This document shows positions 42,382-44,423 of a stretch of DNA of 64,000 bases, piece after piece. The stretch's first letter is position 1, and each line of letters begins with the position of its first letter. Origin of the DNA: Candidatus Micrarchaeota archaeon (GTDB taxonomy: Archaea > Micrarchaeota > Micrarchaeia > Micrarchaeales > CABMGC01). A program made the position numbers and the translations under genes. The stretch spans positions 2,697 through 66,696 of the forward strand of contig DAHXMW010000010.1 in NCBI GenBank assembly GCA_027371545.1. The letters are read 5' to 3'. Below the pieces are notes generated by a model. It was given only the letters and a program-made list of their open reading frames with translations. It was not told where the DNA came from and made no database searches.

Positions 42382-43822
42382 CGAAATTCGCAATGGTTTT
42401 CGCGCCCTTGCCGCAGTATATGCATTTGCAATCAGTTCCATCCTGGTTTTCTGGCATGTTTGTAATCTTTGCGCCTGTCTCCTCCTTTATCTTATCCTCG
42501 CATTCTGCAGACATGCACCATCCGGCCTGCACTATTCCTCCTTTATTCTTCAGAATATCCTTTAGTTTGTCGTATGTATCTGCTTTGGATATCATAGATT
42601 CCATGAATGCGAGGGCTTTCTTATACATAGACTCATGCATCTCTTCCATAATCGAGGCTAGCCTCTCCCTCAGAATGGAAACATTTACTGTCTCCTTTGC
42701 CCCGCTGTCGCGCCTAACCGCAACTACAGATTCCGATGTTATCTCCCGTTCTCCCACTTCTATCCGTATAGGCACGCCGCGCATCTCCCATTCGTTGAAT
42801 TTGTAACCAGGCGAATAGCCTTCCCTGTCATCGAGCCTTACCCTGATGTATTGGCCGAGTTCTTCGGCAAGTTTCCTCGCATAACCAAGCACCTTTTCCT
42901 TGTTTGTTTCCCTGAATATTGGGATTATTATTGCTTGGATGCGTGCTACCCGCGGCGGGATTACAAGGCCCTTGTCATCTCCGTGCGTTGCAACCATGAC
43001 TCCGAGGACCCTTGTGCTTATCGCAAAGGTATTCTGCCAGGCGTATTCCTGCTTCCCTTCCTTATCCAGGAACTTTATATCGAAGGCCTTCGAAAAGTTC
43101 TGCCCGTCATTATGGAAGTCTGGTCCCTGCAGCGCCCATCCGTCAGGCATTATCATCTCGATGCTGTAGCTCGCCACTGCTCCGGCGAATTTTTCCTTCT
43201 CTGTTTTCTTGCCAGGTATTCCAGGAAGGGCAAGATAATCTTTTAGTGCTCTTAGATATATTCCCAGTATTGTCTCCTTCTCGCCCTCTGCCTCATCCTT
43301 GGTAGCAAATACCGTATGGCCTTCATTCCATAGAAACTCCCTTGACCGGATGAAAGGAGTAGGGTGCTTGAATTCCCATCTTAGCACGCTGTTCCACTGG
43401 TTATACCTCATCGGGAGATCCCTCCACGATCTTATCCACTTGGAGTAGCTCGGATACATTATCGTCTCAGATGTTGGGCGTATCGCAAGCTTTTCATCGA
43501 ATTTTGTATCGCCTGCTTGTGTAACCCATGCAACTTCGGGGGTAAAGCCTTTGAAGTGCTCGCTCTCGCGTTCTAGGAACTTCTGTGGTATGAGCAGGGG
43601 GAAATAGACGTTTTCTATCCCTACTTTCTCGAATTCAGCATCTATGCCTCTTGAGAGCGTCTGCCAGGCGTAGTATGACGAAGGGCGAAATGCCAGGGAG
43701 CCAGATACGTCAGTATAATCTATGAATTCCGACTTGAGTAGAACTTCAGCATACCATCCTGAAAAGTCTTCTGTTTTTTTGCACTGTATCCCGTTCTCAT
43801 CTGATATAAAATCACCTTTTAT
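42368..43822 (-). CDS. proS: Proline--tRNA ligase (archaeal type); start codon unresolved
   Basis: The track ORF (42368..43459) starts at ...[22 protein letters not shown] and ends ...[18 protein letters not shown]. Manual translation shows the frame stays open upstream to the TAG at 43825..43823. That stretch encodes [22 protein letters not shown]...[10 protein letters not shown], the conserved ProRS N-terminus, but contains no ATG/GTG/TTG. Confidence 0.85.
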   Translation of the reverse strand: [484 protein letters not shown]

Positions 43823-44423
43823 CTAGAGCTATATCTAGCCCGGATAGTTTATCCTTAAGCAATTTAACGTTCTTAAACTGTACTGCGTGCATGCCTATTT
43901 TTCTAGCGCTCCTTATGTTCTGCAGCTCATTGTCTATCAGCAGCAGTTCACTAGGAGCTAAAGAGATTTTTTTAATTACGTATTCGTATATTTTTGGATC
44001 AGGCTTGCTGTAGCCTATGCTGAAAGAGGTAAATTTGTAATCAAAGATGTTTTTAGGGAATAGTTTTACGGTAAATGCATGGCGATTTCTATCAACATTG
44101 GTAAGATATGCGGTTGTATACTTCTTATGTATTCCTGATGCTATTCTTATTACGGGTTTGTTTACTTTTACTCGTTCTTTATAGAATTCGATCCATCTGA
44201 ACTGGCTTTTATTTATCCCAAGGGCCTTTGACATCTCGGTGCTGAATTTGTCGAGATTTATCTTCCCTGTCTCAAAACTAGGAAGTCTGCTTTTGATTAA
44301 TCCCTGCACCTTATTTAGATTTTTGCCAGATACTTCAGATAAGTAAGAGTAATACTCTTCTTGAGGGGTTCTTATTACCACTCCGCCGATATCGAAGATA
44401 ACTCCGCGTATCATGATATGCAT
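43812..44423 (-). CDS. HAD-superfamily hydrolase (subfamily IA-like)
   Basis: Motif I variant VIFDIGGVV. C-terminal LLIDNELQNIRSARKIGMHAV is the motif IV region. The gene is AT-rich (20 G+C in 44041..44100 by hand count). Confidence 0.65.
   Translation of the reverse strand: MHIMIRGVIFDIGGVVIRTPQEEYYSYLSEVSGKNLNKVQGLIKSRLPSFETGKINLDKFSTEMSKALGINKSQFRWIEFYKERVKVNKPVIRIASGIHKKYTTAYLTNVDRNRHAFTVKLFPKNIFDYKFTSFSIGYSKPDPKIYEYVIKKISLAPSELLLIDNELQNIRSARKIGMHAVQFKNVKLLKDKLSGLDIALDKR

Follow-up and report, generated by a model that had tools for sequence, protein, structure and literature searches.

A conserved AUA codon behind a Shine-Dalgarno element as the probable start of the prolyl-tRNA synthetase gene proS in a Micrarchaeota archaeon

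Translation starts at AUA, AUU or AUC codons (AUH starts) are known from bacteria: in Escherichia coli, infC and pcnB begin with AUU behind a Shine-Dalgarno (SD) site, and NCBI translation table 11 lists ATA, ATT and ATC as initiators. Bacterial ribosomes read AUU, AUA and AUC with the normal initiator tRNA (Met-tRNAi) by means of a mismatch at the third position. For archaea, our search of the literature returned no paper on ATA/AUA starts, be it in Micrarchaeota or in archaea at large, and in a ribosome profiling study of Haloferax around 30% of the putative alternative sites were near-cognate and were set aside by the authors (PMC7261190). Here we describe proS, the gene for an archaeal/eukaryote-type prolyl-tRNA synthetase (ProRS), in a stretch of 64,000 nucleotides (contig DAHXMW010000010.1, positions 2,697 to 66,696; hereafter the window) from a metagenome-assembled Micrarchaeota archaeon of an acid mine, whose genome assembly of 0.86 Mb on 30 contigs is 74% complete. 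Translation of this gene, which lies on the minus strand, probably begins at the near-cognate codon AUA 43807..43805 behind a Shine-Dalgarno element.

When compared to the bacterial AUH starts, the proS site is alike in that an SD stands at optimal spacing, the codon departs from AUG at the third position only, and the gene is intact and conserved. It differs in that the organism is an archaeon equipped with eukaryote-like factors (aIF1) and not with IF3, in that the codon would be AUA rather than AUU, and in that the product is an essential aminoacyl-tRNA synthetase, for which no autoregulatory logic is obvious, and the phenomenon recurs in RNase HII. The site also resembles the SD-led starts found inside archaeal operons (PMC7531240): proS is a second gene, its SD, of the GGTG type, overlaps the upstream gene's end, and its orthologues in other genera start with TTG, ATG or GTG at the corresponding SD-defined site. 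However, the starts of that kind are AUG, GUG and UUG, whereas here it would be AUA. With respect to the solved ProRS of Thermus thermophilus (1H4Q) and Methanothermobacter (1NJ1), nothing but the start codon stands out. The protein is otherwise ordinary, with a full-length collinear match (residues 5-469 on 1H4Q) and the same three Pfam domains, among them the Zn-binding C-terminal domain.

Between an in-frame TAG (43825..43823) and the ATG 43459..43457, the proS frame comprises 121 sense codons. By translating this stretch codon by codon, we found no ATG, GTG or TTG among the 121 codons, and in-frame ATA codons at 43822, 43807 and 43789. The initial annotation had reported this open frame, its lack of canonical starts, the three ATA positions and the stop of the upstream HAD-family hydrolase gene at 43812, and each of these came out the same on re-reading. 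It had also held that the N-terminal stretch must be translated, and two lines of evidence bear this out. First, the 479-residue product counted from ATA 43807 matches the Pfam families tRNA-synt_2b (PF00587), HGTP_anticodon (PF03129) and ProRS-C_1 (PF09180), all above their cut-offs, and aligns over residues 5-469 with the T. thermophilus enzyme 1H4Q (E 2e-137), residue 5 falling on residue 5; moreover, orthologues of about 480 residues are covered by it over 99-100% of their length. Second, we compared four lineages of the genus (this genome, G001/L003, G002/L002 and the ENA contigs L033/L034; about 91-92% protein identity) and counted 57 synonymous against 4 non-synonymous variable codons between ATA 43807 and the first ATG. 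Closer relatives were sought among JGI metagenome contigs, where the best match was 70% identical. Judging from the structure alignment and the strong purifying selection, the stretch without a canonical start is translated.

Gene finders instead take the ATG 43459, which corresponds to Met 117 and falls 13 residues within the Pfam class II core domain, whose start is residue 104. Because no canonical start is present in the N-terminal stretch, public gene calls drop the first 116 residues, motif 1 region included. Accordingly, the only ProRS calls that we found for the genotype carrying the upstream TAG in NCBI, JGI, ENA and Logan were P0002 (347 aa) and P0135 (363 aa), both N-terminally truncated. 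We also considered a split proS with a separately encoded N-terminal fragment and rejected it: proS is present as a single copy, with a single match in the genome, and the N-terminal part would be startless anyway.

To locate the start, we derived the SD usage of the organism from 714 long frames of the same genome. GGTG precedes the ATG start in 71 of them, with a spacer of 5 nt in 37 genes, 6 nt in 23 and 7 nt in 11, while all other spacings remain at background (about 0-3 genes each). The proS junction reads AAGGTGAT-TTT-ATA, and the 5 nt that separate GGTG from ATA 43807 are the modal spacer of the genome; this codon is the sole candidate with GGTG at that spacing. Initiation at a non-canonical ATA, which the initial annotation had listed among several explanations, is thus supported and narrowed to ATA 43807..43805 by the GGTG spacing and by the conservation within the genus.

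The same data bear on other in-frame starts, that is ATA 43822..43820, ATA 43789..43787 or the 5' end of a leaderless internal transcript, which we find very unlikely. All three ATA codons are conserved or nearly so in the genus, but neither ATA 43822 nor ATA 43789 has an SD at a usable distance. In addition, the codons from 43822 to 43808 are unconstrained, and those at 43804..43790 show synonymous-only or conservative change and are therefore probably translated. As for a leaderless transcript, a weak AT-rich GATATAG does lie about 27 nt upstream of ATA 43807, yet the sister species have not kept this stretch.

A more stringent survey took all 226 GGTGAT sites of the genome and asked which codons, placed three nucleotides further on (GGTGAT-N3), begin a reading frame of 90 codons or more with a stop at most 20 codons upstream. 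Such a frame was opened by 5 of 7 ATG, 3 of 9 ATA and 2 of 4 TTG codons, and by none of the 206 other codons. The odds of all three non-canonical cases being ATA, calculated by hand as C(9,3)/C(215,3), are about 5e-5. These three cases are proS, RNase HII and an open reading frame (ORF) located after S8e.

Conservation within the genus points to the same codon. GGTGAT and ATA 43807 are invariant in 4/4 lineages while the flanking codons vary. The six codons upstream of ATA 43807 include 4 non-synonymous and 0 synonymous variable ones (TAG/TTG, I/A, K/D/Q and F/C), and synonymous variation appears only from ATA 43807 onward. By this comparison, coding constraint starts at ATA 43807. Furthermore, the codon 5 nt after GGTG at the proS site of other genera is TTG (L007, L008, L009 and L011), ATG (L017) or GTG (L021), and lies 15-22 codons ahead of the FSxWY motif; here the ATA lies 14 codons ahead of it. 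Since the codon at this spacing carries the proS start in other genera, ATA 43807 occupies the homologous SD-defined start site.

The junction alignment also revealed that the position of TAG 43825 is occupied in the three sister lineages by a TTG, a difference that the initial annotation had overlooked. This TTG overlaps the HAD codons ATT-G, which read CTA-G here (Ile to Leu), so that the change of a single HAD codon from ATT to CTA turned the in-frame TTG into TAG. It could be argued that this TTG is the start of the genus, lost here via the HAD codon change, and that proS is newly crippled or weakly expressed from a near-cognate codon. The TTG is indeed present in 3/3 sister lineages and used there by gene finders, but we consider this scenario unlikely for several reasons. 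First, no GGTG or other SD was found in the alignment upstream of the sister-species TTG. Second, the codons from TTG to ATA vary freely (IK/AD/IQ, C/F) whereas GGTGAT is fixed. Third, the TAG genotype occurs on 9 contigs from several samples, and hence in a viable population, and its proS is single-copy, essential and intact for 479 codons. Even if the TTG had been lost in this way, ProRS would need a non-canonical start here. Because the sister TTG has no SD and the codons between TTG and ATA are unconstrained, we think that the genus as a whole starts proS at ATA, although the sister species may also, or instead, use TTG. Reading the TAG as a sense codon was rejected, given that three in-frame TAGs lie within 13 bases (43837..43823) with no start upstream.

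An error of sequencing or assembly (ATA for ATG, TAG for TTG, or a wrong length of the A-run) had been put forward in the initial annotation, and would be conceivable for a metagenome-assembled genome that is 74% complete. We found this explanation untenable for all practical purposes. The independent ENA assemblies L031 and L032, obtained from different samples, match the window base for base across the junction, TAG, ATA and A7 included; the identical truncated call of 363 residues is found on 9 contigs; and ATA, not ATG, likewise occupies this place in three further species of the genus.

Programmed -1 frameshifting occurs on slippery heptamers such as A_AAA_AAG and A_AAA_AAA (E. coli dnaX type) or A_AAA_AAT (Saccharolobus fucA). 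The proS junction holds a comparable arrangement that had likewise gone unnoticed in the initial annotation, with an out-of-frame ATG (43800..43798) and a run of seven A. Translation from this ATG followed by a -1 shift on GC-A_AAA_AAA-C, either ribosomal or by transcriptional slippage, would restore the proS frame with an N-terminus of plausible length. As in the known cases, the heptamer is in register with the upstream ATG and has the canonical X_XXY_YYZ form in its frame, and two sister lineages (L002 and L003) show A_AAA_AAG in the same register. Nevertheless, we judge this route highly improbable. The ATG has no usable SD, since its distance of 12 nt from GGTG corresponds to a background spacing. 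In L033/L034 the heptamer is broken to A_AAA_AGG, which is not slippery, by a substitution that is silent in the proS frame. Similarly, every site that varies from the ATG to the A-run leaves the amino acid unchanged in the proS frame but alters it in the ATG frame (Thr/Met, Gly/Glu); the 0-frame is not conserved. The 88 nt downstream contain no stimulatory structure (-15.3 kcal/mol, z = 0.59, with 150/200 shuffles folding at least equally well), and the A7 run is reproduced exactly in Illumina assemblies. We therefore regard this element as a look-alike of the programmed frameshift sites rather than a member of the class.

The junction is shared with the HAD gene, whose stop codon TGA (43814..43812) lies within the SD and 4 nt before ATA 43807. 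A HAD homologue adjoins proS in most genera of the order, and in L014 the two genes overlap by ATGA; the linkage is thus old, as the two are neighbours across genera. The initial annotation had proposed that a low-GC HAD gene was inserted next to proS and remodelled its 5' end. We could confirm that HAD is AT-rich (37% GC, compared to 48% for proS and 46% for the window), but the insertion does not hold, since HAD is linked to proS in most genera. A HAD-ProRS fusion by means of a +1 slip on AAA-A (43820..43817) is formally possible and was judged unlikely: the stops of the sister HAD genes differ (TAA, TGA) and have no slippery context, so that the slip is not conserved. In the HAD protein itself, motif I reads FDIGG, so that Gly stands where DxD has its second Asp. 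A tRNA-Trp (44470..44607; the anticodon CCA was identified by eye) lies on the plus strand, in divergent orientation to the HAD-proS operon, and is interrupted by an intron of about 65 nt with a C-box-like GTGATGA. This tRNA was missed by ARAGORN and scores 49.5 bits with the Rfam tRNA model. The features of the locus and the other candidate AUH starts are listed in Table 1.

Table 1. Positions of the proS junction features (window coordinates) and of other candidate ATA starts in the same genome.
Feature	Position	Strand	Details
proS, archaeal/eukaryote-type prolyl-tRNA synthetase, counted from the proposed ATA	42368..43807	-	479 codons + stop
Proposed proS start ATA (AUA)	43805..43807	-	5 nt after GGTG; 4 genus lineages
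Conserved N-terminal ProRS codons before the first canonical start (n=115)	43460..43804	-	Absent from public calls
First canonical in-frame start ATG, choice of gene finders	43457..43459	-	Internal Met 117
Shine-Dalgarno GGTGAT, core GGTG 43816..43813, HAD stop inside	43811..43816	-	Enrichment and conservation
In-frame TAG that bounds the proS frame on its 5' side (sister species: TTG)	43823..43825	-	Alignment of L001, L003, L002, L033
Out-of-frame ATG 43800..43798 with A7 43780..43774, frameshift look-alike	43774..43800	-	26-codon dead-end frame
HAD-family hydrolase gene, co-directional	43812..44423	-	Pfam HAD matches on the called gene in L031-L034
RNase HII	G000:C25:19307-19999 = L035:108-800	-	TAAGGTGAT-tgc-ATA; Pfam, motif
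ORF after S8e, 124 codons	G000:C19:16983 = L036:134-505	+	TAAGGTGAT-gca-ATA
UPF0147 (PF03685) protein	G000:C24:22254 = L037:86-355	-	AAGGTGAT-tca-ATA

Taking the preferred start at ATA 43807, we propose the following mechanism. proS would be translated as the second gene of the HAD-proS operon, from an SD (AAGGTGAT) that overlaps the HAD stop codon. Pairing of this SD would set AUA in the P site, at the distance preferred by the genome, where the ordinary Met-tRNAi (anticodon CAU) would read it by a third-position mismatch. The protein would then have the N-terminus Met-Ser-Asp-Glu-Asn-Gly, with Met at position 1. In addition, ribosomes that terminate on HAD 4 nt upstream may re-initiate at the weak AUA, which would couple the translation of the two genes.

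Regarding the initiation machinery, aIF1 is present in all of the 21 genomes searched, including this one, and the initiator tRNA of the sister genomes is of the standard kind (A1:U72, GGG/CCC in the anticodon stem, anticodon CAU). A loss of aIF1 or an odd initiator tRNA was therefore rejected as the cause of the proposed AUA start, as aIF1 is found in all 21 genomes and the initiator tRNA of the sister genomes is canonical. We also observed an elongator-type tRNA with anticodon CAT and G1:C72 (G000:C16:17-138, plus strand), which is interrupted by an intron of about 47 nt with a GTGATGA and could be a tRNA-Met or an AUA-reading tRNA-Ile2.

Several points weigh against initiation at ATA 43807. 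First, all measurements of AUA initiation, which come from bacteria, have shown it to be poor. Second, a looser test, which counted the ATA codons of pre-start regions that have GGTG 5-7 nt ahead of them, yielded 6 cases where about 3.3 were expected from control spacings, which is not significant alone. Third, the boundary of coding constraint is based on few variable codons close to the start, and the relatives that were compared are kin, hence not independent. Fourth, the TTG of the sister species is in frame, six codons upstream, and could be their real start, in which case its loss here could be recent and mildly deleterious. Fifth, we found neither an initiator tRNA (ARAGORN, Rfam) nor the 16S 3' end bearing the anti-SD in this 74%-complete assembly; the missing initiator tRNA is probably due to the incompleteness of the assembly. 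Finally, a review of archaeal initiation from 2020 names AUG, GUG and UUG only (PMC7531240).

The layout seen at proS, a stop codon and an SD followed by three nucleotides and ATA, is repeated in the same genome at RNase HII (TAAGGTGATtgcATA) and after S8e (TAAGGTGATgcaATA). With ATA taken as codon 1 of RNase HII, the Pfam domain is entered at residue 4, and no canonical start is reached until after the catalytic DEAGRG motif. We extended the comparison of this gene to 30 genomes of the order; as these are related to one another, their counts do not represent independent events. Six codons ahead of DEAGRG, 26 of the 30 genomes have ATA, ATT or ATC and 3 have ATG, and GGTG is found at +5 to +7 for 22 of the 26 AUH sites. 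No ATG, GTG or TTG occurs between the upstream stop and DEAGRG in 18/30 genomes, and in L047, L052 and L057 a stop codon immediately precedes the AUH. Such an interchange of ATA, ATT, ATC and ATG at one SD-defined site is the pattern to be expected of a start codon.

For the ORF after S8e, the first canonical start comes 95 codons in, and no Pfam match was found. The UPF0147 protein is probably another case of an ATA start: its Pfam profile begins at residue 9 counted from ATA, and the first canonical start lies 13 codons further. One more ATA candidate, at window position 32102 on the minus strand, was rejected because it has no Pfam match and resembles a shadow frame.

A broader reading for Micrarchaeales, to which we give a little over an even chance, is a lineage-wide relaxed discrimination of the third position of the start codon on SD-led, operon-internal genes, by which AUA, AUU and AUC would be genuine and heritable starts for essential genes. 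If true, ProRS in this genus and RNase HII throughout the order would fall under it, even though aIF1 is present and the initiator tRNA is of the standard kind.

Other AUH-started genes of Micrarchaeota would be truncated in annotation in the same way as proS. Such truncation inflates the apparent gene decay in DPANN genomes and skews metabolic and completeness estimates. The proS and RNase HII junctions provide a concrete pair that is available as an in vitro test case for near-cognate initiation in archaea with eukaryote-like factors. If the proposed start is true, a conserved AUA on an essential synthetase together with AUH starts on RNase HII throughout an order would mean that SD pairing can override the proofreading of the start codon in an archaeon, and AUH starts may serve to tune the expression of downstream genes by termination-reinitiation.

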